Both the position numbers and the translations under genes were made by a program. The notes under the pieces are model-generated. The model had not been told where the DNA came from, made no database searches, and saw only the letters and a program-made list of their open reading frames with translations. A DNA stretch of 63,336 nucleotides, counting the filler, from Coriobacteriales bacterium (GTDB lineage Bacteria; Actinomycetota; Coriobacteriia; Coriobacteriales; UBA8131), in assembly GCA_031263105.1 (NCBI GenBank). It is 6 parts of 6 records of this genome, joined end to end, with 100 filler letters (N's around TTAATTAATTAA, not from the genome) between each part and the next. Parts side by side here need not be neighbours in the genome. Positions count along the whole stretch, not along the records: positions 30,935 to 49,288 come from JAISGJ010000121.1; 5 more parts are not named here. One strand, 5' to 3'. This document shows positions 31,113 through 46,161 of the stretch, piece after piece; within the stretch, counting starts at the first letter, position 1; each line of letters begins with the position of its first letter.

Positions 31113-32471
31113 TTACTCCTCCTGGACAGAGGCGTCCGCGTCGCCGCCTTTCTCGAACTTCTTGAAGTCGACGGGCTTGGGGAGCTCGATGCCGCGCAGC
31201 TTGTTCAGGGCGATCATCAGATGGTAGAGGATCAGGGCCATGACCGACGCGACCGCGATCGGGCCGATGATGATGTCGGTCGGGAGAAGCTCGGCACCGA
31301 CGCCGAGGCCGGCCGAGCCGACGAACAGGGTGAAGCTGGCAATGCCCATGACCAGCGGCACCGCACCCGTCACCATGTTGACGTTATTGGAGAAGTCCAC
31401 CTTGTTCTCGACCCAGATACGCACACCCAGCATGCCGATCATGCCGTACAGCAGTATGCAGACGCCGCCGAGCACGCCGCCGGGAATCAGGAAGATGGCA
31501 GCACCGAACTTGGGGCAGAGGGAGAGCACCAGGGCGCCCGCGCCGGCCACCCAGTAGGCCGCCGTCGAGTACACGCGCGTCGCAGCCATGACGCCGATGT
31601 TCTCGGCATAGGTGGTGGTACCGGAACCGCCGCCGAAGCCGGCGATGGTGGTGCCTATGCCATCGGAGAAGAGCGCGCGGCCCATGGACTTGTCGAGGTT
31701 CTTGCCCGTCATGGTCGCCACCGACTTGACGTGGCCGATGTTCTCGGCCACCAGCACCAGCACGACCGGCAGGAACATCAGAAGCACGCTGAAGTCCGCC
31801 TCCGGCAGATGGAAGGTGGGCAGGCCGATCCATGCGGCCTCCGCGACCGACTCGAAGGTGATCTCGCCCGTGATCCCGGCGACGGCGTAGCCCACGACGA
31901 CGCCGATGAGGATGGAGAGGCGCCCGATGATCCCCTTGGAGAGCGCCTGGACCAAAACGATGGTCACGAAGGTCACCGTTGCCAAGAACGGCTGGGCGAT
32001 GAAGTTCGAATAGGCCGTCGGCGCCAGGTTGAAGCCGATGAGCGCCACGATGACGCCGGTGACGACAGGCGGCATCAGCTTGTTGATCCAGCCGACCCCT
32101 GCCCTCATGACGATCAGGCCGATGACCGCCAGCAGCACACCGGTGCAGACGATGCCGAAGAGGGCCGCTCCCATGCTGCCGGAGCTGGCGGCGACAACAG
32201 GGGAGATGAACGCGAAGGACGAGCCGAGGTAACTCGGAACCTTGTTGCGGGTGATCAAGAGGAAGAGCATGGTCGAGACGGCCGAGAAGAACAGCGTCGT
32301 CGTTGGCGGGAAGCCGGTCAGCACCGGCACCAGGAAGGTCGCGCCAAACATTGCGACAATGTGCTGTAGGCCGATCCCGACGGTGCGTGGCCATGTCAGG
32401 CGTTCGTCTGGCGCGATCACTTCCCTCGCATCCAGGTTCTTGCCGTCTCCGTGCAGTTTCCACAATGCCAT
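31113..32471 (-). CDS. NCS2/NAT nucleobase permease, UraA (uracil)-type
   Basis: GLQHIVAMFG, YLGSSFAFI, AENIGH, TTTYAENIGV. Confidence 0.92.
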   Translation of the reverse strand: MALWKLHGDGKNLDAREVIAPDERLTWPRTVGIGLQHIVAMFGATFLVPVLTGFPPTTTLFFSAVSTMLFLLITRNKVPSYLGSSFAFISPVVAASSGSMGAALFGIVCTGVLLAVIGLIVMRAGVGWINKLMPPVVTGVIVALIGFNLAPTAYSNFIAQPFLATVTFVTIVLVQALSKGIIGRLSILIGVVVGYAVAGITGEITFESVAEAAWIGLPTFHLPEADFSVLLMFLPVVLVLVAENIGHVKSVATMTGKNLDKSMGRALFSDGIGTTIAGFGGGSGTTTYAENIGVMAATRVYSTAAYWVAGAGALVLSLCPKFGAAIFLIPGGVLGGVCILLYGMIGMLGVRIWVENKVDFSNNVNMVTGAVPLVMGIASFTLFVGSAGLGVGAELLPTDIIIGPIAVASVMALILYHLMIALNKLRGIELPKPVDFKKFEKGGDADASVQEE

Positions 32472-32775
32472 TATCCGCTCCTATCTAAACGATTTCCAAC
32501 AGACGCACCCGACGCTCGTCGTCGGGCGCGGTGGCCGCATTCGCTCGCATGCGCTCGCATTCGCTCTGCAACGCCCGTGCGAACAGGAACCGGCGCTCAC
32601 CTGCCTGCCTGTCTGCCTACCTGTCCACCTGTCTGCCTCCCTCCTGTGCTGAGATCTTCGTCGTTCTCCATCGTAGGCAGCATCTCAGCCTCTGTGTCTC
32701 AAACGTCTCGGTTTCAGTTTAAGGGAGACGACGAGCACTCATCGTCTCCCAAGAACGGCATAGCGGCGGTCCGCT

Positions 32776-32890
32776 GTTCACGTCCTGCGGTCGGCTGCTT
32801 CGCAGCCGAAGATCCCTCGGCTGCGGGGCTTCGCCCCGGAGTTTACCCTGAGCGCAGCCGAAGGGCTCGGACAGGGTGTGAGCAGCGGTC
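32776..32890. repeat. Degenerate/partial palindromic element copy 8
   Basis: TCGGCTGC-TTC-GCAGCCGA hairpin, GATCCCTCGGC, GGGGCTTCGCCCC, GCTCGGACAGGGTGTGAGCAG. Confidence 0.65.
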
Positions 32891-32891
32891 C

Positions 32892-33830
32892 TCATGCTGT
32901 CACCAAGGTGCCTGTTCGCCCTTCGATGCCGTCAAGGGCATGCTCCAGCGAGGTGATGAGCGCCTTGCGCTCGGGGTGCGCGCGCACAAAGCGCATCGCC
33001 GCCTGCACCTTGGGAAGCATGCTGCCCGGCGCAAACTGGCCTTCCGCACAATATGCCTCGGCCTCCTCCAGGCTCAAGCGGCTCAACCAGCGCTCCGTCG
33101 GCTTCCCGAAGTCGATGGCGACCCGCTCCACGACCGTCAGGATCATGAAGGTGCTCGCGTCCACGCTCTCGGCCAGAAGCTCGCCGGCGGAGTCCTTGTC
33201 GATGACCGCCTCCCAAGGCAAGAGCCCCGCGCCGTCGCGGACGACCGGCAGGCCGCCGCCGCCGCAGGCGACGACGACATGCCCGCACTCGACCATCGAG
33301 CGGATGACCTCTATCTCGATGATCTCGAGGGGCTCCGGGCTGGCAACCACGCGCCGCCAGCCGCGACCGGCGTCCTGGCGCAGCGTGATGGAGGGGTCGG
33401 CCTGCATGATGGCCTCCGCCTCCTCCTGCGTATAGAAGCTGCCGATGGGCTTGACGGGGTTCTTGAAGGCCGGGTCGTCGGGATCCACCAGCACCTGGGT
33501 GACGATGCTCGCGGCCACCTTGTCGATCGAGCGCTGGCGCAGCTCGCGATAGAGCGCCTTTTGGATACCGAACCCGATGTATCCCTGGCTCATCGCCCCA
33601 TCGGTGGACAGCGGCATGGCATCGACGGTGTCGACCGTGTGGCTTGCGGCCTCGAACGCCAGGTCGATCATGCCCACCTGGGGGCCGTTGCCGTGGCAGA
33701 TGACCACCTCGTGCCCCGCCTCTATCAGGTCGGCTATGGGGACGGCCGCAGCCGCCACGGCCAGACGCTGTTCGATCAGGTTGTTGCCGAGCGCGTTTCC
33801 GCCCAAGGCCAATACAATTCGTTCGGACAT
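32892..33830 (-). CDS. arcC: Carbamate kinase
   Basis: IVLALGGNAL, HGNGPQVG, GWRRVVASP, AVIDKD, GSMLPKV. Confidence 0.96.
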   Translation of the reverse strand: MSERIVLALGGNALGNNLIEQRLAVAAAAVPIADLIEAGHEVVICHGNGPQVGMIDLAFEAASHTVDTVDAMPLSTDGAMSQGYIGFGIQKALYRELRQRSIDKVAASIVTQVLVDPDDPAFKNPVKPIGSFYTQEEAEAIMQADPSITLRQDAGRGWRRVVASPEPLEIIEIEVIRSMVECGHVVVACGGGGLPVVRDGAGLLPWEAVIDKDSAGELLAESVDASTFMILTVVERVAIDFGKPTERWLSRLSLEEAEAYCAEGQFAPGSMLPKVQAAMRFVRAHPERKALITSLEHALDGIEGRTGTLVTA

Positions 33831-33837
33831 GGTTCTC

Positions 33838-36216
33838 CTACCGCCCGTGTGTCTGTTCTTGCAGTTTACCCCATACCCGGTCGGCCGAGAGCGGAAGATC
33901 GAAGAACTCTGCGCCGACCGCGTTCGCCAAGGCGTTGGCCACCGTTGCGGTCACTGCTATCAGGGGATGCTCCCCCGCTCCACGCGCCCCGTAAGGCCCG
34001 TCCAGCTGCGGGGTCTCGACCACATCGGTGTACATCTTCCGGGGCATGTCCTGGAACGTGGGTATCTTGTAGTCGGTGAAATTGCGCGTCAGTATCCTGC
34101 CTTGGTCGTCGTGCTTGATGACCTCTGAGAAGGTGCAGCCCAAGCCCTGCAAGGCACCGCCGACGATCTGGCCGTGCAGCAGCTCCTCGTTCATGACCCT
34201 CCCGGCGTCGAGCACCGTGGCCATCTGCAACACGTCGATGTCGCCGGTCGCGCAGTCCACCTCGATCTCCACCGCATGGGCGCCATAGGTCCAATCCAGG
34301 GCCGCCTTGCCCTGACCGGTGTACTGGTCCAGGTTGGAGAGTCCCTGCGCGATGGCCTTTCCACGTCCGATCAGGGGCCCGCCGATGGCATTGCCGTTGT
34401 CGTAGACATAGCCCATGGCCAGCTTGCTGAACGGGATGGAAAGATGCGGGTTCTGACGCACATAGACCATGCCGTCCTTGAACTCGACCTCGTGTTCCGA
34501 GGCGCGCAGCGCAATCGATCCCACCTCCTTGATCTGCTTGATCAGGTCGTCGCAGGCATCCATGACCGCCATGCCGCAGATGGAGGTCATGCGGCTTGCC
34601 ACCGTCTGCCAGTCGTAGGGCGAGAGCGGCGTGGAGATGCTCTGGTTGATGTAGACGTCCTCGATGGGCATGTCCAGGCGCTCGGCAGCGATCTGCCGAA
34701 GGACCGTATAGGTGCCCTGGCCGTAGTCGACGCCGCTCGCCGAGATGCGGACCGTGCCGTCCTCGTTCATCTGCACGAGGGCGCTCGAGGCGGACCAGGT
34801 CGGCATTGCGGGGGCTTTCTGCAGGACCGCTGCCGCCTTGCCACGGAACTTGCCCGTGGCGGCCATCTGCCTCTTCTCCTCGTCCGAGTACGGGGCCTGA
34901 ACGCCCACGAGCTCGATGGCGCGCAGCAGGCACTTGTTGGGACTGCCGGTGTTGACGGTGATGAGCTCGCCGGTGATGGTCTCGTCGCCCGGATACAGCA
35001 GGTTCATCAGACGGAAGTCCGTGGGGTCCATGCCCAGCTCCTTGGCCATGAGGTCGCGCTGGCGCTCCACGGCGAAGAAGACCTCGGCATGGCCGAAGCC
35101 GCGATAGGCGGTGCCGAAGAGATGGTTGGTGTACACCGTCTTGGCGTCGACGCAGATGTTGGGGATGCTGTAGGGGCCGCAGGCGCTCGTTGCGGAGGCG
35201 CGCCCGATATTGACCCCGTAGTCCGCGTAGGCGCCGGCGTCCCACAGTATCTCGACCTGCTCGGCCACTATCTTGCCGTCCTTCGTGCACCCGGTCTTGA
35301 TCCTGCAGAACTGCCCCTGCCTGCAGGGCAGGGTCTGGCACTCCTCCTCGCGCGTCGGCTCCAGCTTGACCGGCCTGCCGCCGGCGGCCTTGGAGAGCAG
35401 GGCGACCAGCGGCTCCAGGTGGATGCCCGCCTTGCCGCCGAACCCGCCGCCGACAAAGGGGATGTTGACCTCGATGTTGGCCCTCGGGATCTCGAATGCT
35501 ATGGAGAAGAGGTCCCGCACCGAGAAGGGCGACTGGCAGCTGCTCCAGATCTTGATGTGGTCGCCCACGCTCCACTGCACGATGGTGACATGCGTCTCGA
35601 TGGGCACATGCATGACCTGGTTCTGCACAAAGGTGTTCTCTATGACAAGGTCTGCCTGCTTGAAGCCCGCCTCCAGGTCGCCACGGCGTATGCGCGTGTG
35701 GTTGGCGATGTTCGTGCCCGGCTCCGGGAAGAAGACGCCCACGCTATGGGCATAGGTCCCCAGATGGGGATGCAGGAGCATCGCCTCCGGCTTGACCGCG
35801 TCCCGCACATCGTTCAAGACGGGGAGCGGCTCGTACTCCACCTCGATGAGGCCCACGGCCTGTTGGGCGATCTCTGCCGTGTCGGCGGCGACCGCAGCCA
35901 CGATCTCTCCCTGGTAGCGCACCGTGTCGGTGGCGATGACGCTCTTGTCCTGCATGTAGATGCCGACCTTGACCGAGCCGTGCTCGCCGGTGATGACGGC
36001 ACGCACGCCGGGAAGCGCCTCGGCGGCCCTGGTGTCTATGCTGAGGATGCGGGCATGGGCGTAGGGGCTGGTCTTGACCTTGGCATGGAGCATGCCGGCG
36101 AGGACGATGTCCCCGGCGTACTTTGCGGTGCCCGTGACCTTCTCCGGGCCGTCGTCGCGCTTGACCGGTTTGCCGATATACCTGAACTCCTGGGCAGCAG
36201 CGGCGTGTTCGCTCAT
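33838..36216 (-). CDS. Xanthine dehydrogenase-family Mo-binding subunit
   Basis: GGGFGGK, AYRGFG, DYGQG, GPYGARGAGE. Confidence 0.95.
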   Translation of the reverse strand: MSEHAAAAQEFRYIGKPVKRDDGPEKVTGTAKYAGDIVLAGMLHAKVKTSPYAHARILSIDTRAAEALPGVRAVITGEHGSVKVGIYMQDKSVIATDTVRYQGEIVAAVAADTAEIAQQAVGLIEVEYEPLPVLNDVRDAVKPEAMLLHPHLGTYAHSVGVFFPEPGTNIANHTRIRRGDLEAGFKQADLVIENTFVQNQVMHVPIETHVTIVQWSVGDHIKIWSSCQSPFSVRDLFSIAFEIPRANIEVNIPFVGGGFGGKAGIHLEPLVALLSKAAGGRPVKLEPTREEECQTLPCRQGQFCRIKTGCTKDGKIVAEQVEILWDAGAYADYGVNIGRASATSACGPYSIPNICVDAKTVYTNHLFGTAYRGFGHAEVFFAVERQRDLMAKELGMDPTDFRLMNLLYPGDETITGELITVNTGSPNKCLLRAIELVGVQAPYSDEEKRQMAATGKFRGKAAAVLQKAPAMPTWSASSALVQMNEDGTVRISASGVDYGQGTYTVLRQIAAERLDMPIEDVYINQSISTPLSPYDWQTVASRMTSICGMAVMDACDDLIKQIKEVGSIALRASEHEVEFKDGMVYVRQNPHLSIPFSKLAMGYVYDNGNAIGGPLIGRGKAIAQGLSNLDQYTGQGKAALDWTYGAHAVEIEVDCATGDIDVLQMATVLDAGRVMNEELLHGQIVGGALQGLGCTFSEVIKHDDQGRILTRNFTDYKIPTFQDMPRKMYTDVVETPQLDGPYGARGAGEHPLIAVTATVANALANAVGAEFFDLPLSADRVWGKLQEQTHGR

Positions 36217-36683
36217 ATTCTGTTCGCCCCCAAAGACTCGATGGCGGCGATGATGCTCTCATAGCCGGTGCAGCGGCAGAGGTTGCCCTCCATCGCCTCT
36301 TTTATCTCGCTGCGGCTCGGACTGGGGTTTACCTCCAGAAGCGCACGCGCCGACATGATCATGCCCGGCGTGCAGAAGCCGCATTGGAAGGCATTGTGCT
36401 TGATGAATGCCTCCTGCAGGTCGGAAAGCCTGCCGTCCTGACACTCGCTCTCTATGGTGCGGACCTTGGCGCCTTCGCATTCGAGCGCCAAGACCATGCA
36501 GCTGTTGACCGGCCGGCTGTTCAGGATGACGGTGCAGGCGCCGCACTCCCCTGCCTCGCAGCCTCCCTTGGTCCCGGTAAGGCCGAGCTCCTCACGCAGG
36601 AGCGTGAGCAGGGTGGCGTTCTCGGAGACGAAGACGTGGTATTCCTGGCCATTGACCACAAGGCCGATGGGCTTCTTGCTCAT
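36213..36683 (-). CDS. Xanthine dehydrogenase-family 2Fe-2S subunit
   Basis: GCEAGECGAC, QCGFCTPG, GNLCRCTGY. Confidence 0.95.
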   Translation of the reverse strand: MSKKPIGLVVNGQEYHVFVSENATLLTLLREELGLTGTKGGCEAGECGACTVILNSRPVNSCMVLALECEGAKVRTIESECQDGRLSDLQEAFIKHNAFQCGFCTPGMIMSARALLEVNPSPSRSEIKEAMEGNLCRCTGYESIIAAIESLGANRI

Positions 36684-37516
36684 CGTTGCACCTCCGTTCC
36701 CGTGGCGAACGCATCGATGATGCGCTCGGTGAAGAGCTTGACCATGGCGATGCGGTACTCCTTGCTGGCGCGGACGTCGCTGATGGGCTTGGCCGCCGAG
36801 GCCGCCTCGGCGACTATCTCGTCCCTGCGACGGGCAAGCTCGTCGGGGCCGAGCGTCCCGAAGCCGTCCAACAAAAGCGGCGTTATGGCAACGGCCCCCA
36901 AGGAGAGACGGAGGCTGCCGTCGATGCCGTAGAAGCCGGCGACGCCCACCTGGGCCAGGTCGTGGCCACGGATACGGCGTTTCTTGAGATAGATCCCCCG
37001 TCCCTTGCTCACAGGGAACCTGACCTTCGTGACGAGCTCGTTGGCGTCGAGGGCATGCTTCTTGACGCCGACGAAGAAGTCCTTGAGCGCTATCTCGCGC
37101 CCTCCCTCGGGAGTGGCCGTCGTCAACGCGCCCTGCAACACCAGGGCCGCCGGGGCTATGTCGGCACCGGGCGAGGCGTTGCAGAGGTTGCCGACCAGCG
37201 TTGCGCGATTGCGCAAGAGGGAGTTGGCCAAGGTCGAGGCTGCTTCCTTGAGGAGGGTGCAGCCGTCCCCCACACAGCTTGAGGCGATGATCTCGTTAAA
37301 GGTCACGGCCGCCCCGATCTCAAGGTACTCGTTGTTGATCTCGATGCCCTGCAGCTCGGGCAGGGCCTTGACGTCCATGACGGCGGCGGGAGCGATCATC
37401 CCGTCGCGCAGTTGCACGATAAGGTCCGTGCCTCCTGCCAGGTATCTCGTATCACCCTCCTGGCCGAGAAGCTCGAAGGCCTCGGCAAGAGTGGTGGGAT
37501 GTACGTAGGTCGGCAT
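36680..37516 (-). CDS. Xanthine dehydrogenase-family FAD subunit
   Basis: LAGGTDL, RNRATLVGNLCNASP, PISDVRASKEYR. Confidence 0.95.
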   Translation of the reverse strand: MPTYVHPTTLAEAFELLGQEGDTRYLAGGTDLIVQLRDGMIAPAAVMDVKALPELQGIEINNEYLEIGAAVTFNEIIASSCVGDGCTLLKEAASTLANSLLRNRATLVGNLCNASPGADIAPAALVLQGALTTATPEGGREIALKDFFVGVKKHALDANELVTKVRFPVSKGRGIYLKKRRIRGHDLAQVGVAGFYGIDGSLRLSLGAVAITPLLLDGFGTLGPDELARRRDEIVAEAASAAKPISDVRASKEYRIAMVKLFTERIIDAFATGTEVQR

Positions 37517-37640
37517 GCGTTCGCCCTTTCCTTAATGACTCCTAAGACTCCTCCAAAACCCACTTCTTTATATCCAGAGAACGCCTTGGCCCGCGCACGG
37601 TGCGGCGCACAGTACCGCGCACGGGCCGGTCGTTGTGAGA

Positions 37641-38441
37641 TCAGACGTCGAAGCCGGTGAAGGCCACGATGCGGGCGAAGGCCGACTCGCCGTCCTTGAA
37701 CTTCCAAGGGAAGGCCCCGATGACGCAGCGCTTGTTGGAGAGCTCCTCGATCTGGCCGCCCAGGCATTCGGCATGGATGATCTCGCCATAGCGCTGCGGG
37801 AACATCTGGATGTGCATGGCCTGATAGGAGTCCGGCCAGTGGTAGACGTCGTCCAGGCCCTTGCCGTAACGCTTGCGGAAGAGCTCGTCGCACAGCTTGG
37901 CCTCGGCCGGCTCCCAGTCGCGGATCTTGGTGTTCATGGGGTGGTCGGCGCTGCCGCAGTCCACGCCGATCCAGGCGAACTTCATGTCGTGCGCCCAGTC
38001 GACGAAGTCCATGCTCGGGCCGGGATGGCGGAGCATGTAGCGGCGCTCGTTTGCCTCGGGCTCGGTCCAGCCGTACCTGTGGTAGCCGGTGTTGATGATG
38101 AGGATGTCGCCCTCTTTGACCTCGCAGCGCTTGGTTATGTCCTCCGGCGTATAGATGCCGAAGTCCTCCGCCTGGTCGCTCAGGTCGACGACGACGCCCG
38201 GGCGGCAGAGCTTGGTGAGCTCGAGCGAGGCGATGTCACGACCGGCGGTGTCGAAGTGAAGGGGGCCGTCCAGGTGCGTCCCCACATGGTTCGACGTGGT
38301 GACGAGCATGCCGTTGGCTCCGTTGGGGCTCAGGCGCTTGAAGAACTTGACCTGCAGCGGCTCATACGTGGGCCAGGGCGGCGTGCCTATCCCTGTGTCG
38401 ATCGACAGCTCGTACATCTTGATGTCATTCCAGTCAGCCAT
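37641..38441 (-). CDS. Cyclase-family (KynB-like) metal amidohydrolase
   Basis: HVGTHLDGPLH (HxGTHxDxPxH); GDILIINTG; IGVD; IIHAE. Confidence 0.9.
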   Translation of the reverse strand: MADWNDIKMYELSIDTGIGTPPWPTYEPLQVKFFKRLSPNGANGMLVTTSNHVGTHLDGPLHFDTAGRDIASLELTKLCRPGVVVDLSDQAEDFGIYTPEDITKRCEVKEGDILIINTGYHRYGWTEPEANERRYMLRHPGPSMDFVDWAHDMKFAWIGVDCGSADHPMNTKIRDWEPAEAKLCDELFRKRYGKGLDDVYHWPDSYQAMHIQMFPQRYGEIIHAECLGGQIEELSNKRCVIGAFPWKFKDGESAFARIVAFTGFDV

Positions 38442-38469
38442 TCGAATACCTCTCTTTCTTCATGTGCCT

Positions 38470-39879
38470 TTACTTTGTACTGTACGCATCCGCAAGCGCC
38501 AAAAGGGCATCACGGAAGCATTCCCATGGAGGATTGACGAGTCCGGCCCCCACCTGGCCGATGCCGGCCTTGCGATGGGCGATGCCCGTGTTGATCTGTG
38601 GCAAGGTGTCCTTCTCTACGACCGTGCGCACGTCGATGCCGGTCGGGTTGCCCCTGAAACCGAGCACCGGAATGGAGAAGACCGTGCTCTCGCCGACGGT
38701 GATGGTGTACATGCGCTCCGAATACCGGATGGCGTCGGCGGCCTGTCCGCCGACGAACTGCACGATGGCGATGCTTGCCGCCATGGCAAAGCCGCCGAGG
38801 CCCACGGTCTCGGTGATGGCGCTGTCCCCCATGTCGGGGTTCTTGTCGGCATCGGTGAATCCGGGGAAGAGCAGGCCTTTGACCTCTTCTGCGGGGCCGG
38901 TGAACCATCGGTTCCCCAAACCTGCCACCCGTATGCCGAAGTCGGTGCCGTTGCGGCTCATGCAGGTGACCACGGTGCTCTTCTCCACGCCGCTGGCCGC
39001 GTCGAGCATGGCCTTGGAGCAGGCCATGGAGAGATTGAGGAAGAAGTGGTCGTTGGAGTTGATGAACTCGAGCACCTCGATGCGCTCGCTGGCGTCGATG
39101 TCCGCCTTGAGCACGAAGGGCAGGATCTCCCTGATGAAGAGCGAGGTCGCGGCCTTGTTGCGGTTGTGCACCTCGTCGCCCATATGCAGGGCCTGGGCGA
39201 TGATCGACTTGACGTCGATGCCGGGGGAGAGCTCGACGGCCTTCTTGACCGCAGGCGCCAGCACGTCGCGCATCCACCTGAGGCGCACAAGCACCTCTTC
39301 GCTGTAGGCGCCGAAACGCAGCACCTTGCCGAGGCCCTCGTTCATGGTCGCATAGGAGCGGTTGCCGCCCTGCCTGTTCTCCAGGATGAAGACCGGCATG
39401 GAGGGGGTGATGACACCGGCCATGGGCCCCACGGCGTCATGCTCGTGGCAGGGCCCGAACCGTATGGTGCCGCTGGCCGCAAGCGCCTCGGCCTCCTCGA
39501 CGGTCTGGGCACGCCCCTCGAACAGCAGGCCGCCGACGATGGCTCCGCGCAGGGGGCCGCACATACGCTCCCAGGCAATCGGCGGGCCGGCGTGCAGGAC
39601 GGTGTCGGGCGTCATGCCCGGCAAGGTCTCCAGCGCCGTGCCGACCCCGACCAACAGGGGCTGGGCGGCATTGATGCGTTGCAGGGCCTCCAGGTTGGCG
39701 GCATCGACGTCGTCCTGCATGAGGACGTCCACGGCATCCAGCAGCTGCTTGTCGCCACGTGCGGCAGGTTTCCAGGCGAGGTTGACGGCATCGACGCCCT
39801 GGCTTTCCAGGTCGTCATAGAAATCCTTGCTGCCCAGGTTGACGGCCTTGATCTCGGCTCCGAACAGGTCGCGAATCAT
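38470..39879 (-). CDS. DUF1116 protein (YlbE/AllG/YahG-like)
   Basis: LHAGPP, PCHEHDAVGPMAG, NEGLGKVLRFGA, MGDEVHNRN, GDSAITE, INTGIAH. Confidence 0.9.
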   Translation of the reverse strand: MIRDLFGAEIKAVNLGSKDFYDDLESQGVDAVNLAWKPAARGDKQLLDAVDVLMQDDVDAANLEALQRINAAQPLLVGVGTALETLPGMTPDTVLHAGPPIAWERMCGPLRGAIVGGLLFEGRAQTVEEAEALAASGTIRFGPCHEHDAVGPMAGVITPSMPVFILENRQGGNRSYATMNEGLGKVLRFGAYSEEVLVRLRWMRDVLAPAVKKAVELSPGIDVKSIIAQALHMGDEVHNRNKAATSLFIREILPFVLKADIDASERIEVLEFINSNDHFFLNLSMACSKAMLDAASGVEKSTVVTCMSRNGTDFGIRVAGLGNRWFTGPAEEVKGLLFPGFTDADKNPDMGDSAITETVGLGGFAMAASIAIVQFVGGQAADAIRYSERMYTITVGESTVFSIPVLGFRGNPTGIDVRTVVEKDTLPQINTGIAHRKAGIGQVGAGLVNPPWECFRDALLALADAYSTK

Positions 39880-41429
39880 CGTTGCCCCCCTTCTGTCGGC
39901 AGGGCCCGTGCGGCCAGGCGGGCGGCGCGGATATTGCTTACGCTCACTGTCATGCCGGCATCGAGCAGCCTGTTGCACTGGGCGTCAAGGCCCTGGGGGT
40001 CGCCTGCCGTGCCGATCACCGAGGCGATCCAGAGCACGGTGCGGCCCTCTTCCTTGAGGCGCGCGTTGGCCTCGTCCACCGCCTGGGCAAGGATGCCGGC
40101 CGGGTCGGGGTGCGACCCGTAGCCGAGCTCGAGGTCGACGAACATGACGGCGGTCTCGGGGTCGAGCGCGTCCTGGACGATGCGCTTGTTGCGAAGCGAC
40201 GGGTCTATCATCGGATGCGGCTTGCCACGGGTGAAGTAGTCGTCGCCCATATCGATGAAGGTGTTGCCGACGCTTCGGTGCACGTCCTGTAGGCGCTCGT
40301 CGTCCGAGAGCGGGATATTGCTCCGTATCGACAGGCCCGACCCGCGAAAATACACCATGGCCTCGTCACAGACCGTGCCGCCGCAGAAGATGCCGCGGAC
40401 GAAGCGCTGCGAGGGCGCGAGGGCGGCGAGGAGTGCGGGGACGCGCTCCTCCCGGTAAAAGGGGTCGATGAGCTCGGGGGCGCTGCCGCTGGAGAGGCGC
40501 ACCGCCGCAGCCGCGGTCTCCTCCAAGGTGCCGGCCAGCTCGATGGCGCCCAGGTCGGCGTTGGGCTCACGGCCGAGCAGGCAGAGCACAACGGGCTTGC
40601 CGATGCCCCTGGCGGCCTCGAGCACCTTGTCGGCGACGTCGGGGGCCGGCGGCTTCGAGAGCACCACCACCACCCGCGTGGCCTCGTCGCGTCCCAGGGC
40701 ATCGAGGGCCGCCAACATGGTGCGCCCGCCCACAGCCGACGAAAGGTCCCTGCCGCCGACGCCGATGGCCTGGGTGATGCCGCCTCCCATCGCGTCGATG
40801 AGCTGGGTCACCTGCTGCAGGCCCGTGCCCGAGGCGGCGACGATGCCGATGTCGCCCGAGCGGACCACGTTCGCAAAGCCGAGGGCCCGACCGTTGAGGA
40901 TGGCGGTGCCGCAGTCCGGCCCCATCATCAGGAGGCCCTTTTGGCCGGCCAGCTCCTTGAGGCGCACCTCCTCCTCGATCGTGACGTTGTCGCTGAAGAG
41001 GAACACGTTGATGCCTCGGCGCAGCGCGCTTTGGCACTCGTGCGCGGCGTAGGCGCCGGGCACCGAGACGACGGCCATATTGAAGCCCTCGTCCAGCTCG
41101 GCGACCTGGTCGATGTGCTCGAAGACCGTCGCCCCTGCGTCTTCGCGTCCGGCCTTCTTCCTGCTCATGCCCTGCTCGATCGCTTCGAGCGCACGGTCTG
41201 CGGCGGCCTTGTCCGTCGCGACGACCGCGATGAGAAGGTCGTTCGGCGTTGCAGCACGGACCGCGTCCGTGACCGCCCCCATATGTGCCAAAAGCTCCAG
41301 GTTCAGATCGGTCGCCATGCCCACCAGGACGTCCTCGATGCCCTCCAGGGCCGAGACGTCGTTGGACAGGCGCATCAGGCTCACCGAGTCCGAGTACTGG
41401 TTGGGCTTTACAAGCGTTACCTTATGCAA
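39876..41429 (-). CDS. fdrA: FdrA-family protein (AllF/YahF-like, succinyl-CoA synthetase-like fold)
   Basis: YSDSVSLM, SVPGAYA, FSDNV, MGPDCGT, ASGTGLQ, GKPHPMIDP; TTG start after GGAGG. Confidence 0.92.
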   Translation of the reverse strand: MHKVTLVKPNQYSDSVSLMRLSNDVSALEGIEDVLVGMATDLNLELLAHMGAVTDAVRAATPNDLLIAVVATDKAAADRALEAIEQGMSRKKAGREDAGATVFEHIDQVAELDEGFNMAVVSVPGAYAAHECQSALRRGINVFLFSDNVTIEEEVRLKELAGQKGLLMMGPDCGTAILNGRALGFANVVRSGDIGIVAASGTGLQQVTQLIDAMGGGITQAIGVGGRDLSSAVGGRTMLAALDALGRDEATRVVVVLSKPPAPDVADKVLEAARGIGKPVVLCLLGREPNADLGAIELAGTLEETAAAAVRLSSGSAPELIDPFYREERVPALLAALAPSQRFVRGIFCGGTVCDEAMVYFRGSGLSIRSNIPLSDDERLQDVHRSVGNTFIDMGDDYFTRGKPHPMIDPSLRNKRIVQDALDPETAVMFVDLELGYGSHPDPAGILAQAVDEANARLKEEGRTVLWIASVIGTAGDPQGLDAQCNRLLDAGMTVSVSNIRAARLAARALPTEGGQR

Positions 41430-42511
41430 GACTCACCTCCGTTGTTCCAAGCCCGCTCGCGAGGTTGCTGCTCACGCCCACTGTCATTCCGAGCGGAGGG
41501 GGCGAAGCCCCGCAGCCGAGGAATCTTTGGCTGCGAAGCAGCCGACTGCGGGCAGAGGCGCCCCCCGACCGCAGTTGATCGCTTCGCGATCAAAGATTCC
41601 TCGACAGGCTCGGAATGACAGTGGGTGCAACTAGTGACCTCGCGAGAGATGGGCTCTCGTTCCCTCTCGCTCACGCTCCGTTGTAGCGCGAGCCACATGC
41701 CAAAGACGGTGCAGGCTCCGCTGGACGCCCCGACCGCAGCCAGGCGGCGCAGGGAGCAGAGCAGGTTCTCGCTGCTGAGCCCGCAGACGACGGCCAGGAC
41801 GCGCTGGAGCGTCTCGTGGTAGTCGGCCTCCAGGGCATTCTGCAACAGCTGCCTGGAGAGCGTCGTCGTCCGTGCGAGGCCGCCCGCAACTGCCGCATGC
41901 ATCGCCTGCGTCCAAGCAGGGTCGTGCCCCACATGGGCGTCCATGGCAAGGTAGCCGAGCAGGACGTCGTCGCCGGCGGGCGTCAGCCCGGGGCCGAGCC
42001 CGATCAGGCGGGTCGCCGTCCGAGGCGTAAGGGAGCTGTTGCCATGCGGTGCCCCGGCCAAGCTCCGCGCCGCATCGGGAAGCGCCCTCTGCACCGCCTC
42101 GGGGATCTCCAGGCGGCACATCGCATCCGCAAAGGCCGCAAGGCTTCGGGGGGTCGGCGTGGCACGCGCGTGGGGCGGCAGCGGGCCCTCCCAAAGCGGC
42201 ACGCCTTCAAGGCCGACCCTCGTCCCGTCCGCCGCCGCGCCCCTCGCAGCGCCCCTCGCCGCACCTATCACGAGCGCCGTGCGGGCGAACCGCAGGCCGT
42301 CTCCCACAGCCACGCGCGGCAACCTGTTCAGGCACAGGAAACGGGACGAGCCCCCGGCCTGCGGCAACGCCAAGGCCAGGAGCTCGTCTCTCACAGTCAG
42401 ATTGACGACCTTCTCGTGAACGCTCAGCACGCGTGCCGAGCCCTGCTGCAGGCAGCAGCGCGCGAAGCGCGCTCCCACGCTCAAGGCTCGGATGTCGTGT
42501 CGGGCGGACAT
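41417..42511 (-). CDS. DUF2877 protein (YlbF/AllH/YahE-like) with a 61-aa element-derived insert
   Basis: LIGLGPGLTPAGDDVLLG, TTTLSRQLL, VGASSG; ORF stays open through the element. Confidence 0.88.
   Translation of the reverse strand: MSARHDIRALSVGARFARCCLQQGSARVLSVHEKVVNLTVRDELLALALPQAGGSSRFLCLNRLPRVAVGDGLRFARTALVIGAARGAARGAAADGTRVGLEGVPLWEGPLPPHARATPTPRSLAAFADAMCRLEIPEAVQRALPDAARSLAGAPHGNSSLTPRTATRLIGLGPGLTPAGDDVLLGYLAMDAHVGHDPAWTQAMHAAVAGGLARTTTLSRQLLQNALEADYHETLQRVLAVVCGLSSENLLCSLRRLAAVGASSGACTVFGMWLALQRSVSEREREPISREVTSCTHCHSEPVEESLIAKRSTAVGGRLCPQSAASQPKIPRLRGFAPSARNDSGREQQPRERAWNNGGESCIR
41464..41638. mobile_element. Palindromic element copy 9, in frame inside DUF2877, with 8-bp TSD
   Basis: CTCGCGAG at 41456-41463 and 41639-41646; 175+8=183 nt=61 codons. 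Confidence 0.92.
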
Positions 42512-42518
42512 CGAGGGG

Positions 42519-42863
42519 TCACACGGCGGAAGGCTCGACGATAAAGCCGTAGTAGTCTTTGCCGACGCCTTCTTTGACGACGCCTACCGCAGAGGTCGCC
42601 TCCTCGCCGATAAAGGGCTTCTCGTCGTCTATCTGTACCGACACGATCAGCCCGGTCTCCTCGAACCTGACGATGGCGAAACACAGGTAGGGCTTCATAT
42701 AGCCCTCGGGGAGGTTGTAGACCTTGGTCCACGTAAGCACCGTGGCCTTGCCCTCAAGCTGCTCCTCCGTGAACTCCGTATTGCCGCACGTGCGGCACAC
42801 GAGGTGCCGGGGATGATGCAACTCACCACATTCTGTGCAGCGATAAGCATGCATTTCCATCAT
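42519..42863 (-). CDS. DUF35-type Zn-ribbon/OB-fold protein (thiolase partner)
   Basis: CTECGELHHPRHLVCRTCG then OB-fold GKATVLTWT; directly after a thiolase. Confidence 0.88.
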   Translation of the reverse strand: MMEMHAYRCTECGELHHPRHLVCRTCGNTEFTEEQLEGKATVLTWTKVYNLPEGYMKPYLCFAIVRFEETGLIVSVQIDDEKPFIGEEATSAVGVVKEGVGKDYYGFIVEPSAV

Positions 42864-42865
42864 GC

Positions 42866-44065
42866 TCACCTTTCTTTCTCAGTGGTCAGGATGATCGACA
42901 CCACGTTGTTCCCAAAACCACCGAAATTCGTCGTGAGGCCGGTCTTTGCGCCTTCGACCTGTCGGCCGTCGGCCTCTCCACGGAGCTGGCGCACGATCTC
43001 CACCACCTGGGAGACGCCTGTGGCGCCAACCGGATGGCCCTTGGCCTTGAGGCCGCCGGAGGTGTTGAGGGGCATCTCGCCTCCGATGCGCGTCTTGCCC
43101 TCGCGAGCGGCAAGGTGGCCCTCGCCACGGGGGAAGAACCCGACCTCCTCGCTCTCGACGATCTCAAGGATCTGGAAGGCGTCGTGCAGCTCGGCGACGT
43201 CGATGTCCTGGGGCCCCATGCCGGCCATCTCGTAGGCGATGCGCGCGCTCTCGCGCACCGCGAAAAGGTCCAGCGGGTCGGGGCGCTCGGCCACGACGTG
43301 GGTGTCGGTGGCTTGGCCCACGCCGGCGATACGTACCGGCTCATGGGAGAACTTGCGGTCCGTGTCCATCGCGGTGAGCACCAGGGCGGCGGCGCCGTCG
43401 CTCATGGGGCAGGTGGCATACACGCGCAGGGGATCCGCGACGTAGGGGTTGATGACGCCTGCGTCCTCGTCTTCGGTGATGGCATGCAGGTCGGGCACCA
43501 GGTGGATATGGGCGACGGGGTTGAGCATGGCGTTCTCGTGGTTCTTGACCGCGACGATGGCGAGGTCCTTCTCCGTGGAGCCGTACTTCTCCATGTGCAG
43601 GCGCGTGAACATGCCCGCAAAGGCCGGCAGGGTGAGCCCGTAGGGATACTCGGCCTCCGGGTGCAGCATCGTTGCAACGAAGTCCGTGCTCTCCCAGCCG
43701 CTGAGCACGCGCATCTGCTCGGCACCGACGACCAGCACCGTGTCGACCAGGCCGCTGGCGATGGCCATGTAGGCGATCTTGACAGCGGAGGCGCCGGAGG
43801 CGGGGCCGTTCTCTATGGTCTCTGCCATGGCAGGGCGCAGGTTCAAGGTGTCGACCAGCGCCGAGGCGGCACCGGAGAGCTTGTTGACCTGCCCTACGCC
43901 CATCGAGGCGAGGAACACCTGGTCGATGCCGTGCTTTCCGGCAGCCAGGTCGATGCCCGCATCGTGCAGGGCCTCGATCGCCGCAGCGCCGGCCATGTCG
44001 AGAAAGGTTCCATTGAAGCGGCCGAACTTGGTGTGGCCGACACCGACAACGCCGACTTCTCTCAT
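42866..44065 (-). CDS. Thiolase-fold protein (SCP2/archaeal type) lacking the nucleophilic Cys
   Basis: GVGHTKFG, ENGPASG, CPMSDGAAA, ELHDAF, NTSGGLKAKGHPVGATG; RBS AGGAGG. Confidence 0.9.
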   Translation of the reverse strand: MREVGVVGVGHTKFGRFNGTFLDMAGAAAIEALHDAGIDLAAGKHGIDQVFLASMGVGQVNKLSGAASALVDTLNLRPAMAETIENGPASGASAVKIAYMAIASGLVDTVLVVGAEQMRVLSGWESTDFVATMLHPEAEYPYGLTLPAFAGMFTRLHMEKYGSTEKDLAIVAVKNHENAMLNPVAHIHLVPDLHAITEDEDAGVINPYVADPLRVYATCPMSDGAAALVLTAMDTDRKFSHEPVRIAGVGQATDTHVVAERPDPLDLFAVRESARIAYEMAGMGPQDIDVAELHDAFQILEIVESEEVGFFPRGEGHLAAREGKTRIGGEMPLNTSGGLKAKGHPVGATGVSQVVEIVRQLRGEADGRQVEGAKTGLTTNFGGFGNNVVSIILTTEKER

Positions 44066-44078
44066 AAGATCGTTCCTC

Positions 44079-44744
44079 CTACTTCGTTTGGGCGTAACCC
44101 GACGGGAGGCGCGCAGGGATGTTCGCAGCCAACAGCTCGTCCGGCACAGGCCTGCGACCGGTGCACTTGACGGCCTTGTGCTTCTCCCAAAGCTCCTTGG
44201 TGAGCACATAGGTCGGCACGCCGCCGAGCTCGTGCCAGACCTCGGGACGGGACTCCAGCTCGTACTCGATCATCCAACGCTTGAAGCCGTTGGGGGACTC
44301 GGCCACCACCAAGACCTCCTCCTGGTTCAAGAAGTCGAAATGGTACTCCATCTTTGCGGCGAAGAGCTGGGCGCCGATGCGCAGGCCCTGGCGGATGGCC
44401 ATCGTGTGATAGCTCATGCCGGTCTTGTCGTCCACGCTGCGGCCGTTGACCAGGCCGACGATCTCGCCGTTGATGGTGCCGAGAAAGACGTACTCGTCCT
44501 TGACGCGGTACCGCATGTAGCCGAGGACCTCGGCATAGATGCGCGAGGCGACGATGTCGTAGAAGTCCTTCTCGACCGTCATCAAGGGCTGCACGGCGTC
44601 GAGCACGATTCCGCATTCCTCACGGGAGATCTGGCGGACCACCATCTTCTCGCCGCTTGCCAAGGTTATGAATTTTGCGGGATACGGCTCCATCGTGCTT
44701 TCGGGCGGACGCAGCTCCTGTTCCATCTTGTCTATGAGCGCCAT
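44079..44744 (-). CDS. GNAT-like (putative N-acetyltransferase fold) protein
   Basis: FLGTINGEIVG strand; RQGLRIGAQL resembles the acyl-CoA binding motif A; first gene of the operon. Confidence 0.65.
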   Translation of the reverse strand: MALIDKMEQELRPPESTMEPYPAKFITLASGEKMVVRQISREECGIVLDAVQPLMTVEKDFYDIVASRIYAEVLGYMRYRVKDEYVFLGTINGEIVGLVNGRSVDDKTGMSYHTMAIRQGLRIGAQLFAAKMEYHFDFLNQEEVLVVAESPNGFKRWMIEYELESRPEVWHELGGVPTYVLTKELWEKHKAVKCTGRRPVPDELLAANIPARLPSGYAQTK

Positions 44745-44915
44745 CAAATTCACCTTTCTCTCGAGCTCGTTCTTGGGCACTTCCGGTCTTTGGTTCCGGG
44801 CCGGTCGCAGCATTGCTTCCGACCTTATGCGAACCTTATGCGAAGTGTACGTTTTCAGCCGCCGAGGCGGCAATAGGAGAGACTCCAAAAACTCATGGCG
44901 TCTGCCGTGTGGCCC

Positions 44916-44931
44916 TTGTGCAATGGCACAA
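44916..44931. promoter_or_regulatory. Palindromic operator, probable CdaR/PucR-family site
   Basis: TTGTGC-AATG-GCACAA between the divergent regulator and the operon. Confidence 0.65.
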
Positions 44932-45018
44932 TTCTGTTACCATGGCGTTAATCAACGTCGGCTCCATCGAGCCGCCGAGCCCAGATCATCGCGCCTCCAA
45001 GGAAGAAGGGGTGAGGCC

Positions 45019-46161
45019 ATGGGGATCACTCATGAGCTTGCACAACCGATAGTCAGCCATCTTGGGGAGGTCCTTGACTGTCCCATAAGCATCACGGACT
45101 CGAAGGGGATCATCGTCGCCTCCAGCGACAGCAAAAGACTCAACACCCGCCACGAGGCCGCCCTCGAGGCCATCGCCAACCGGAGCGAGCTCAAGGTCTC
45201 CGAGGAGATGGCCCTCGACTACAGCAATACGCTCGAAGGCATCACCCTGCCCCTGATCCTGCACAAGAGCTGCGTGGGCGCGCTCTGCCTCAAAGGCAGG
45301 CCGGAGGAGCTGAACGCCCACGCCTCCATCATCAGCATTGCGGTGACCTCGCTGTTGGAGACGGCGGAGATAACCCATCGGGCGAGCACCCGCCAAAACA
45401 TGATGGACGCCTGGGTCAAGGACCTCACCAACTCCTCCGACGAGGACTACGAGCAGATCGTCGTGCAGGCAGGCATCCTCGGAATCGACTGCCAGAAGCC
45501 GAGCGCGCTTGTGGTCGTCCGCTTCAACCCGGTGGCCCAGGTCGAGCTGCCTGCCCTCAAGACGACCATCGCCGAGGTCGCGCATGCCGGCCCGGGCCTG
45601 CAGTTCCTCTCCTATACGGGGCAGGGGCACTTTGTCTGCGCCCTTCCCGTGGCAGACTTCGGGGGCGAGACCGAGCTGCATGAGGCCTGCGGGCTCCTCG
45701 TTCAGAGGCTCGCCTGCTTCAAGCTCCGTTTCCATATCGGCGTCGGTCGCCGGGGCAGCGGCATACAGGGGTACCGCCAGAGCTACCACGATGCCCTCCA
45801 CGGCGTCCGCGTGGCCGAGCGCCTCGGTGACGCCAAGCATGTCCTCTACTATAACGAGCAGCGCATCTTCAGGCTTTTGGAGGGCGTGCCCGACTACCTT
45901 CGCGAGGTCTTCATCGACACCCAGGCCGAGGACCGGAACTGGGACCCCGTGCTCCTCGAGACCTTGCAGACCTATTTTGCCATGGACCGCCGCATCAACG
46001 AGACGGCCCGTGCGCTCTACATCCACCGCAACACCCTGCTCTTCAGGCTCAACAAGATCGCCGACACCTACCGTCTCGACCCGCGCAAGTTCCATGACGC
46101 AGTGGTGCTGCAGACGCTGCTGTATCTGATTCGGCTGTCCCTGGATACGGCGGAATCGTAA
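45019..46161 (+). CDS. CdaR/PucR-family transcriptional regulator
   Basis: N-terminal ISITDSKGIIVASSD..RLNTRHEAA; C-terminal ETARALYIHRNTLLFRLNKI HTH. Confidence 0.92.
   Translation: MGITHELAQPIVSHLGEVLDCPISITDSKGIIVASSDSKRLNTRHEAALEAIANRSELKVSEEMALDYSNTLEGITLPLILHKSCVGALCLKGRPEELNAHASIISIAVTSLLETAEITHRASTRQNMMDAWVKDLTNSSDEDYEQIVVQAGILGIDCQKPSALVVVRFNPVAQVELPALKTTIAEVAHAGPGLQFLSYTGQGHFVCALPVADFGGETELHEACGLLVQRLACFKLRFHIGVGRRGSGIQGYRQSYHDALHGVRVAERLGDAKHVLYYNEQRIFRLLEGVPDYLREVFIDTQAEDRNWDPVLLETLQTYFAMDRRINETARALYIHRNTLLFRLNKIADTYRLDPRKFHDAVVLQTLLYLIRLSLDTAES

Follow-up and report, generated by a model that had tools for sequence, protein, structure and literature searches.

A widespread gene cluster of anaerobes as a candidate route for pyrimidine breakdown to carbamoyl phosphate and a malonyl-type unit

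We describe a cluster of thirteen genes, found in a 63,336-nt stretch of DNA (the window, several joined contigs) from the metagenome-assembled genome (MAG) of a Coriobacteriales bacterium (GCA_031263105.1), which very probably forms a conserved catabolic unit for a nitrogen heterocycle and yields carbamoyl phosphate. From the protein families encoded we outline a specific route, to which we assign about an even chance, in which uracil or thymine would be converted via barbiturate and an acylurea to carbamoyl phosphate, and so to ATP, and to a malonyl-CoA-type unit, without oxygen. Substrates and reactions are proposed throughout from the observed gene content, family membership, motifs, conservation and gene replacement. 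The cluster (positions 31113-46161) lies wholly within one contig (30935-49288; G000:C14, 18354 bp) of the 2.9-Mb MAG (250 contigs, completeness 86%, contamination 6.5%) and comprises twelve minus-strand genes and a divergent plus-strand regulator gene (Table 1). The minus-strand genes encode a permease, a carbamate kinase, a three-subunit molybdenum (Mo) hydroxylase of the xanthine dehydrogenase (XDH) family, a cyclase-family amidohydrolase, AllF-, AllG- and AllH-like proteins, and a trio of DUF35, thiolase-like and GNAT-like proteins; they overlap or are separated by at most 124 nt, the sole larger gap being a 420-nt spacer before the permease gene.

An earlier note on this DNA, which had proposed an anaerobic oxidative pyrimidine or ureide pathway for these genes, left the conservation of the cluster to be checked. 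In a survey with one genome per species, 244 genomes from multiple phyla carry a close relative of the gene for the GNAT-like protein. The best 80 loci were analysed, 41 of which, all from other species, count as well flanked because at least 9 kb of sequence extends to either side. All three trio genes (GNAT, thiolase-like, DUF35) are present in 77 of the 80 loci and in all 41 well-flanked ones; AllF, AllG and the cyclase occur together in 60/80 (40/41 well flanked), the FAD, FeS and Mo subunits of the hydroxylase in 53/80 (38/41), and the permease in 23 of the 41. A homologue of the regulator holds the same divergent position in 16 of the 80 loci. When the remaining open reading frames (ORFs) were compared all against all, the only additions were a divergent AllH (36 loci), a PucR-domain regulator (24 further loci) and a MobA-like nucleotidyltransferase (8 loci).

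Gene order is identical in two other genera of the same family (G005 and G008, whose carbamate kinases are 82% and 68% identical to that of the window), and at least eight different orders occur across the species and phyla that carry the set, among them AllF-AllG-cyclase-trio-hydroxylase-permease in Clostridium and hydroxylase-AllH-AllF-AllG-cyclase-carbamate kinase-trio-permease in Peptococcaceae. Carriers are found in Clostridium, Oscillospiraceae, Peptococcaceae, Spirochaetes, Coriobacteriales and some archaea, and include C. ragsdalei, C. magnum, the human-gut Oscillospiraceae Flavonifractor and Lawsonibacter, and termite-gut bacteria; they are strict anaerobes, and the two Clostridium species named are acetogens used in gas fermentation. 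Variant loci also occur: three are without the hydroxylase, two consist of just the trio plus a permease of uracil type, and two from Coriobacteriales MAGs (L051:10001-17067 and L063:102-7171) combine the trio with a PucR regulator, a DUF485 protein, an MctC/ActP-like monocarboxylate symporter and a Nit6803-like C-N hydrolase, with no AllFG, cyclase or hydroxylase within them. These variant bacterial loci fit a modular pathway. At the cluster end in four Clostridium species, a gene for a 3-hydroxyacyl-CoA dehydrogenase follows that for carbamate kinase (e.g. L054:18720-19673). In none of 300 other genomes sampled from the class of the source MAG was the GNAT-like gene found, and the Coriobacteriales AllG nests among Bacillota sequences in the AllG tree described below. 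Because of these two observations the cluster was probably acquired by transfer, and its sequence relationships suggest that a termite-gut Coriobacteriales lineage probably received the operon from Bacillota.

AllF, AllG, AllH and carbamate kinase all score at or above their family cut-offs. Carbamate kinase gains ATP from carbamoyl phosphate. The window AllG is 47% identical to E. coli YlbE/AllG over 415 residues (455 bits to PDB 3clq), AllF is 38% identical to E. coli FdrA over 510 residues (260 bits to PDB 3dmy), and AllH is 33% identical to E. coli YlbF over 110 residues, this subunit being poorly conserved between lineages. The ATG of AllG overlaps the stop codon of AllF as ATGA. The boundary between the two is shifted (39876-39978), with the E. 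coli-type FdrA C-terminal tail encoded at the start of AllG (a weak NCBIfam match, E 0.00088), and in a relative (G012; L013:9986-13099) AllF and AllG lie in a single ORF. The E. coli AllFGH genes adjoin allE, allC and allD. Passages of PMC11326118 describe the E. coli enzyme as interconverting oxalurate plus phosphate and oxamate plus carbamoyl phosphate, free of coenzyme A (CoA) on free oxamate.

No allantoinase, AllC, AllD or barbiturase gene is present within the cluster, as had been stated from the sequence, nor any link to allB, allC, allD or allE. For barbiturase the search had no positive control: AtzD/TrzD-family members (PF09663, E<=1e-5) were found in 0/5 carriers, but also in 0/14 control genomes. 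Allantoin genes elsewhere in the genome, which the earlier note had named as evidence against its proposal, did not appear: neither allantoinase (TIGR03178) nor AllD (TIGR03175) matched above cut-off in the source MAG and four other carriers, two of which are recorded as complete chromosomes. Two members of the same family, G012 (L013) and G016 (L014), carry a different cluster, with an M20 amidohydrolase, a cupin, an Ldh_2 dehydrogenase, an MFS transporter, AllF/AllG, carbamate kinase and AllH; this is of the E. coli-like allantoin/oxamate type, and both AllFGH types thus occur in one family. In a quick maximum-likelihood tree of 29 AllG sequences, in which frame-overlap stops in four rows were read as X and long branches were flagged, the E. 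coli, G012 and G016 proteins form a clade (SH-aLRT 100), and the 24 cluster-type AllG sequences lie across a branch of support 93 from it. A third AllFG context appears in L012 (G033), where a PucR regulator, AllF and AllG stand with an isochorismatase-family hydrolase. It is reminiscent of the link to biuret and triuret hydrolases in nitrifiers, where, according to passages of PMC12625717, allFGH adjoins triuret and biuret genes. Because of the allantoin-type, L012 and nitrifier contexts, AllFGH looks like a module for several acylureas.

The window permease scores 373 bits against RutG and 325 against uracil permease, versus 175 against xanthine permease (NCBIfam), and bears the motifs AENIGH and ENIGVMAATR. 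In NCS2 carriers Glu at the motif position is the uracil-type state, Gln that of xanthine/urate carriers. Of 33 cluster-linked permeases, 26 have the Glu form and one the Gln form, and in six the motif was not found in the aligned part. Seven were compared with NCBIfam: the C. magnum permease passes the uracil-permease cut-off (NF007995, 642.7 vs 477 bits), four others have uracil permease as their best family (347-424 bits), and one is a generic NCS2 protein. From these motifs and scores the cluster permeases are predicted to be of uracil type.

The hydroxylase stands apart from characterised members of its family. Its Mo subunit has XdhA as the best NCBIfam match (488.5 bits, cut-off 780), PucD scores 428 (cut-off 784), and the XdhB and XdhC scores are also under cut-off; its best PDB match, the alpha subunit of 4-hydroxybenzoyl-CoA reductase, reaches 306 bits only, and no close characterised relative was found by overall similarity. 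The Mo subunit carries the motifs GGGFGGKA and RGFGHAE, and in all 46 homologues aligned (46/46), as in the window enzyme, the XDH Glu is replaced by Ala or Ser and the XDH Gln by Glu. In bovine XDH the Glu after GGGFGGK and the Gln in RGFGxPQ contact the substrate and Mo=O. With both XDH-type residues missing, the cluster enzyme would hydroxylate something other than xanthine and is predicted not to be a xanthine dehydrogenase. The uracil-type permeases and the altered motif lend support to the pyrimidine substrate favoured in the earlier note, the reactions being those that we infer. A second set of related genes lies at 25578-30551 (Mo subunit 25578-27863, FAD subunit 28330-29154, Amidohydro_1 protein 29238-30551). 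That Mo subunit has the motifs GGGFGGKE and RGFGAPQ, the states of xanthine dehydrogenase, and probably belongs, by its sequence, to a true xanthine dehydrogenase with a deaminase-like partner. It had been taken for a neighbour of the cluster; the genes are on another contig, and the adjacency was not borne out.

The HxGTHxDxPxH stretch of the cyclase aligns with kynurenine formamidases, and its residues H52, H56, D58 and H62 are invariant in 24/24 aligned homologues. Against the arylformamidase equivalog it scores 40 bits (cut-off 223), and its PDB matches include the ring-opening isatin hydrolase (4j0n, 5nmp). A role as barbiturase is a guess.

The GNAT-like protein is without a Pfam or NCBIfam match. 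Its AlphaFold2 (AF2) model has the GNAT fold with a predicted local distance difference test score (pLDDT) of 90.8, and Foldseek returned 261 PDB matches at E<=1e-3, the top ones all GNATs and many with probability 1.0. With VIA-align the model superposes on N-acetyltransferases solved with CoA (Z 14.2, root-mean-square deviation 2.9 A over 161 residues). Among the 50 fold-search matches listed there is no malonyl-CoA decarboxylase and no polyketide loading GNAT, which is no evidence against a relationship. The canonical CoA loop of GNATs reads Q/R-x-x-G-x-G/A, and the corresponding Q-G-L-R-I-G-A fits it partially. The protein is 62-87% identical across Coriobacteriales, Clostridium, Oscillospiraceae and Spirochaetes, and its family comprises 171 clusters (50% identity) at E<=1e-3 among 1.84 billion representatives.

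Its thiolase-like partner aligns well with archaeal-type thiolases, reading IENGPASG against IEAACASG of PDB 7yvy_A, and has Pro in the column of the nucleophilic Cys in 79/79 sequences (the window and 78 other loci); because of this replacement it cannot be a thiolase. In the DUF35 protein the four zinc-ribbon Cys are invariant in 25/25 aligned sequences. The arrangement recalls assemblies such as the archaeal thiolase-HMG-CoA synthase-DUF35 complex (6esq/6et9), BbsAB (7pxp), PhlACB (5m3k/5mg5) and the Cys-less Ltp2-ChsH2 aldolase (6ok1), all chains of which are sequence matches: a thiolase-fold gene adjoins a DUF35 zinc-ribbon/OB gene and a third partner, and the known assemblies form complexes. 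It differs from them in the Pro for Cys, with which no acyl-enzyme thiolase chemistry is possible, and in a third partner of GNAT fold rather than of the HMG-CoA synthase or KAS III type.

Distant relatives place the GNAT-like gene in another setting. Members of the GNAT-like family 35-52% identical to that of the window occur in MAGs labelled Promethearchaeota, Hodarchaeota, Hadarchaeaceae, Nitrososphaerales, Coprothermobacterota and Caldisericota, and a metagenome scan with an alignment of distant members retrieved 545 relatives, of which the best 80 loci were kept (GNAT-like proteins 31-41% identical to the window's) and 35 are at least 8 kb long. The hydroxylase and AllFG recur among these 35 (Mo subunit in 22, FAD in 22, FeS in 23, AllF in 22, AllG in 24); thiolase-like and DUF35 genes were detected in 0/35 with the window proteins as queries, and the distant loci use Bmp/Nup-type importers of the ATP-binding cassette (ABC) class. 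Near the GNAT-like gene, 13 of the 80 loci carry a gene for an acyl-CoA carboxyltransferase (PF01039) and/or for OAD_gamma, a biotin carrier or OAD_beta, and in six of these 13, from several sequence-diverged groups, such a decarboxylase gene is directly next to it. Four loci set it beside genes for an epimerase-like glyoxalase-fold protein, methylmalonyl-CoA mutase, a biotin carrier and a carboxyltransferase, and in one its neighbours are a carboxyltransferase gene and an ADP-forming acyl-CoA synthetase alpha-like gene. Carboxyltransferase, OAD_gamma, biotin carrier and OAD_beta make up the Na+-pumping methylmalonyl-CoA and malonyl-CoA decarboxylases.

Because decarboxylase or mutase genes adjoin the GNAT-like gene where the thiolase-like and DUF35 genes are absent, a (methyl)malonyl-CoA intermediate is implied. 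We read this, from gene position, as a probable non-orthologous replacement, in which (methyl)malonyl-CoA enzymes would do elsewhere what the thiolase-like/DUF35 pair does in Bacillota. The Na+-dependent, biotin-dependent acyl-CoA decarboxylases occupy the place beside the GNAT-like gene in lineages without the pair, and their presumed task, decarboxylation of a (methyl)malonyl thioester, would be the same; none is present in the window cluster, and the equivalence is drawn from gene position only. A malonyl or methylmalonyl unit fits C4-C5-C6 of uracil or thymine, unlike the products of a purine ring. The malonyl unit of the earlier note, to be handled by the GNAT/thiolase/DUF35 module, thus gains separate support from the genes beside distant GNAT-like genes, with the correction that the thiolase-fold protein is no thiolase.

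Two further gene associations were seen at related loci. In seven Bacillota loci (L020-L027) a lone OAD_beta gene stands beside genes for an ammonium transporter-PII fusion and a beta-lactamase-fold protein, one or two genes upstream of the regulator; as a link it is weak and may reflect lineage synteny, although the decarboxylase genes at the distant loci give it some interest. In archaeal-type loci that are close kin (L100, L101, L113-L117, L121, L123 and L131), genes resembling those of complex I or group-4 NiFe hydrogenases (49-kDa, 20-kDa and 30-kDa subunits and a HycI-like protease) lie upstream of the Mo gene, and may possibly provide the hydroxylase beside them with an electron outlet.

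From these elements we propose the following pathway. The UraA-type permease would take in uracil or thymine, which the three-subunit Mo hydroxylase would hydroxylate at C6 to barbiturate or 5-methylbarbiturate, a cyclic N-acylurea. The ring would then be opened, the cyclase-family amidohydrolase either performing this step or stripping the remaining amide nitrogen. The AllFGH-type enzyme would split the N-acylurea with phosphate to give carbamoyl phosphate, as E. coli AllFGH does with oxalurate, and carbamate kinase would convert this to ATP, CO2 and NH3. The three-carbon remainder would pass through a (methyl)malonyl-type CoA thioester made or handled by the GNAT-fold protein, and the Cys-less thiolase-like/DUF35 pair would decarboxylate the thioester, leaving an acetyl (or propionyl) unit; in other lineages the place of the pair would be taken by a Na+-pumping decarboxylase that depends on biotin, or by methylmalonyl-CoA mutase. 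That this branch runs through CoA thioesters is probable, and is the element that the earlier note, partly supported overall, did not propose. Two orders of reaction can be envisaged. Ring opening could depend on CoA and come first, the cyclase acting later as an amidase; this order would have to drive ring opening uphill, should the hydrolysis of barbiturate lie near equilibrium. Alternatively, the cyclase could open the ring hydrolytically, with AllFGH acting next and thioester formation last, which needs an uphill amide-to-thioester step.

A more far-reaching version, which we consider rather unlikely, would see in the cluster a fermentative pyrimidine pathway of ancient origin, common to Bacillota, Spirochaetota, Coriobacteriales and archaea of Asgard, Hadarchaeal and Nitrososphaerales type, that conserves both energy-rich bonds of barbiturate. 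The GNAT-fold protein would act 'in reverse' as an N-acylurea:CoA acyltransferase, with a CoA ester of ureidomalonyl or malonyl type as its product. Carbamoyl phosphate set free by the AllFGH-like enzyme would provide one ATP via carbamate kinase, and the last amide nitrogen would be taken off by the cyclase-family enzyme. The thiolase-like/DUF35 pair would represent a (methyl)malonyl-CoA decarboxylase of a new kind that works without biotin; its product, acetyl-CoA, would provide a second ATP, and where a biotin pump replaces the pair the gain would be a Na+ gradient.

Several observations weigh against the proposed uracil/thymine pathway. Only 6 of the 41 well-flanked loci have a carbamate kinase gene no more than 10 kb away, although the enzyme is encoded elsewhere in the genome in 5/5 carriers that have none in the locus. 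The window permease falls under all equivalog cut-offs (NF007995, 324.8 vs 477 bits), and C. bowmanii, in whose locus no hydroxylase is seen, has a permease of xanthine type. The substrate of the hydroxylase is unreadable from sequence. Among the distant loci at least 8 kb long the cyclase occurs in only 2/35; most distant loci (L096-L143) have GNAT-like proteins 83-100% identical to one another and are not independent, and the link to decarboxylase genes could in some cases be lineage synteny. Locus absences rest on tblastn with the window proteins (E<=1e-5, 40% coverage). On the chemical side, ring opening of barbiturate is close to equilibrium, and the thioester-forming step would need pull from later steps; moreover, formation of a thioester from an N-acylurea is not known to us for any GNAT enzyme.

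Other explanations of the cluster have to be set against the same evidence. The probability that the genes are chance neighbours without a functional unit is practically negligible: adjacency is not function, as a general caveat, but the genes co-occur despite shuffled order in Bacillota, Actinomycetota, Spirochaetota and archaeal-type metagenome loci, and their coding regions overlap. An ordinary oxamate branch of anaerobic allantoin (purine) breakdown, with an oxalurate-specific AllFGH and the allantoin genes elsewhere, would account for the presence of AllF, AllG, AllH and carbamate kinase and for subunits 38%, 47% and 33% identical to those of E. coli, and the MAG is only 86% complete. This reading is nevertheless very improbable and close to refuted, given that allantoinase and AllD are missing above cut-off from the source MAG and four carriers, that true allantoin-type clusters of the same family carry an AllG grouping with that of E. 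coli, unlike the AllG of the cluster, and that hydroxylase, cyclase and trio travel with the cluster type of AllFG in 38-41 of 41 loci. On the first two of these grounds the E. coli-type allantoin reading was rejected.

The same enzyme logic might serve another nitrogen heterocycle, a purine product such as xanthine or urate or some other ring, likewise converted through an N-acylurea to carbamoyl phosphate. We judge this unlikely. It would be compatible with a hydroxylase whose sequence does not reveal its substrate, with the PucR-family regulators (named for purine catabolism) in 24 loci, with the one xanthine-type permease linked to a cluster, with the Bmp/Nup-type importers of the distant loci, whose family binds purine nucleosides, and with the termite-gut label of the only listed DNA match, that gut being a habitat of urate recycling. 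The permeases speak against it, being uracil-type in 26/33 by motif and in 5/7 by best family, with one above the uracil-permease cut-off; so do the two XDH-type motif residues that the hydroxylase lacks and the Mo enzyme of the other contig has, and the recurrent link to (methyl)malonyl-CoA enzymes, which fits pyrimidine C4-C5-C6 and not purine ring products. Quite improbable is the scheme of the earlier note, which does without CoA esters: the cyclase would be the barbiturase, the AllFGH-like enzyme would turn free ureidomalonate into malonamate, and the trio would deamidate or decarboxylate free malonamate or malonate to acetate. Purified E. coli AllFGH, in passages of PMC11326118, does use free oxamate and carbamoyl phosphate without CoA, the cyclase family does include the ring-opening isatin hydrolase, and a free acid (malonamate, cyanoacetate) would fit the two Coriobacteriales loci in which the trio is combined with a nitrilase-like C-N hydrolase and a monocarboxylate symporter. 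The carboxyltransferase/Na+-decarboxylase, mutase and acyl-CoA synthetase genes adjacent to GNAT-like genes in other lineages, however, all act on CoA esters, as do the GNAT, thiolase and DUF35 families, and the nearest GNAT structures were solved with CoA bound.

The uracil/thymine pathway that we favour has counterparts among known systems. With the E. coli AllFGH/AllK oxamate branch the cluster shares the same three subunit families and a co-operonic carbamate kinase, and presumably N-acylurea phosphorolysis to carbamoyl phosphate and ATP; it differs in the separate AllG branch, in the lack of allC, allD and allE beside it, in its union with a Mo hydroxylase, a cyclase-family hydrolase and a GNAT-like protein, in encoding the FdrA C-terminal tail on AllG, and in a presumed substrate one carbon longer (ureidomalonate or its CoA ester). 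The oxidative route of aerobic actinomycetes employs uracil/thymine dehydrogenase, barbiturase and ureidomalonase. In common with it, the proposed pathway would turn uracil into barbiturate by a hydroxylase and proceed through barbiturate, ureidomalonate and a malonyl unit; in contrast to it, the ureido group would not leave as urea but be conserved in carbamoyl phosphate and ATP, and the three-carbon unit would take the form of a CoA ester. As further differences, a search of five carriers turned up no barbiturase of the AtzD/TrzD family (nor did that of the 14 controls), and the carriers are strict anaerobes. The cluster thus resembles the E. coli oxamate branch in its ATP step and the aerobic oxidative pathway in its first step, and is a member of neither. 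E. coli and C. difficile degrade uric acid by a reductive pathway that, as presented in passages of PMC12507026, comprises XdhD, YgfK, SsnA, HyuA, the YgeW carbamoyltransferase and the YqeA carbamate kinase, with hydrolytic replacements in some species. It too is an anaerobic nucleobase cluster with an XDH-family enzyme, amidohydrolases and a step that forms carbamoyl phosphate and is coupled to carbamate kinase. The present cluster is distinguished by AllFGH in place of YgeW, by the lack of YgfK, SsnA, HyuA and YgeX, by oxidative rather than reductive chemistry and by another permease type. The pyrimidine routes named in passages of a 2025 paper (PMC12507026) are the oxidative, reductive, Rut and URC routes. 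The statement that no characterised pathway has this gene set stands, as no description of it or of an anaerobic barbiturate route was found in the full-text literature, subscription journals and supplements being outside that scope. We rate the cluster as a variant of known systems with up to three unassigned enzyme activities.

The gene map (Table 1) rests on third-position G+C and on Pfam and NCBIfam scans. The genes, order and orientation given in the earlier note are all present, as a minus-strand run with a divergent regulator; its longest-ORF starts for the thiolase-like, GNAT-like, regulator and AllG genes were too early, the probable starts lying downstream of them.

Table 1. Genes and intergenic region of the cluster, in window coordinates, with the matches that support each assignment
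Feature	Position	Strand	Evidence
NCS2 nucleobase:cation symporter, uracil (UraA/RutG) type	31113..32471	-	PF00860 253.6 bits
Carbamate kinase	32892..33830	-	TIGR00746 (arcC) 359.8 bits, cut-off 358.25
Mo-binding subunit, XDH-family hydroxylase	33838..36216	-	PF02738, PF20256, PF01315
2Fe-2S subunit of hydroxylase	36213..36683	-	PF01799 110 bits, PF00111; 4-nt overlap with each neighbour gene
FAD-binding subunit of hydroxylase	36680..37516	-	PF00941 158.7 bits, PF03450
Cyclase-family metal-dependent amidohydrolase	37641..38441	-	PF04199 113 bits
AllG-like (DUF1116) subunit	38470..39879	-	PF06545 334.8 bits
AllF/FdrA-like subunit (CoA_binding + Ligase_CoA)	39876..41429	-	NF004760 476.8 bits, cut-off 433
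AllH-like (DUF2877) subunit	41417..42511	-	PF11392 74.5 bits
DUF35 protein (zinc ribbon + OB fold)	42519..42869	-	PF12172, PF01796
Thiolase-fold protein without nucleophilic Cys	42866..44065	-	PF22691 162.8 bits, PF00108 73.3 bits
GNAT-fold protein, 221 aa	44079..44744	-	Predicted structure; 0 Pfam/NCBIfam matches
Divergent intergenic region, operon/regulator	44745..45018	.	From probable starts of both genes
CdaR/PucR-family regulator (Diacid_rec, GGDEF_2, HTH_30)	45019..46161	+	PF05651 101 bits, PF17853, PF13556

No promoter-like site was scored in the divergent intergenic region, and the promoter and terminator scan was uninformative (three promoter-like sites vs 2.0 expected, six terminator-like sites vs 7.2 expected). 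An Rfam scan of the whole contig at E<=1 gave seven matches, all far under gathering scores, and no riboswitch upstream of the permease or the operon. The spacer between the carbamate kinase and permease genes (32472-32891, 420 nt) is G+C-rich, with short direct repeats and hairpin-prone stretches, and matches no Rfam family; its equivalent in the relative G008 is about 115 nt long. Beyond the regulator gene comes a convergent gene (46350-48986) whose product is a large surface protein containing leucine-rich repeats of BspA type and Listeria-Bacteroides repeats; a strong hairpin (46176-46225) sits between the ends of the two genes. Paired runs of 44 N at 11322-11421, 21496-21595, 30835-30934, 49289-49388 and 58669-58768 mark joints between contigs, of which the window holds at least six, so adjacency across them means nothing. 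Among sequencing runs holding this DNA no RNA run is listed, and the only strong DNA match (termite gut) may be the source sample.

Harmless carriers are in culture, for example Clostridium magnum DSM 2767, C. ragsdalei P11, C. aromativorans, Anaerocolumna aminovalerica DSM 1283 and Flavonifractor or Lawsonibacter hominis, which makes the question directly testable. If the proposed pathway is true, it would constitute a further (fifth) route of pyrimidine breakdown, widespread in anaerobes and leading from a nucleobase to ATP by substrate-level phosphorylation; it would provide a second substrate class for the recently discovered AllFGH enzyme and a function both for a very conserved orphan family of GNAT fold and for the Cys-less thiolase/DUF35 pair. 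Should the fermentative version hold, three new enzyme activities would be added. As speculation only, the fate of uracil-like drugs might also be concerned. Since carriers occur in the human gut and in the termite gut, the pathway could bear on the recycling of nitrogen in the gut.

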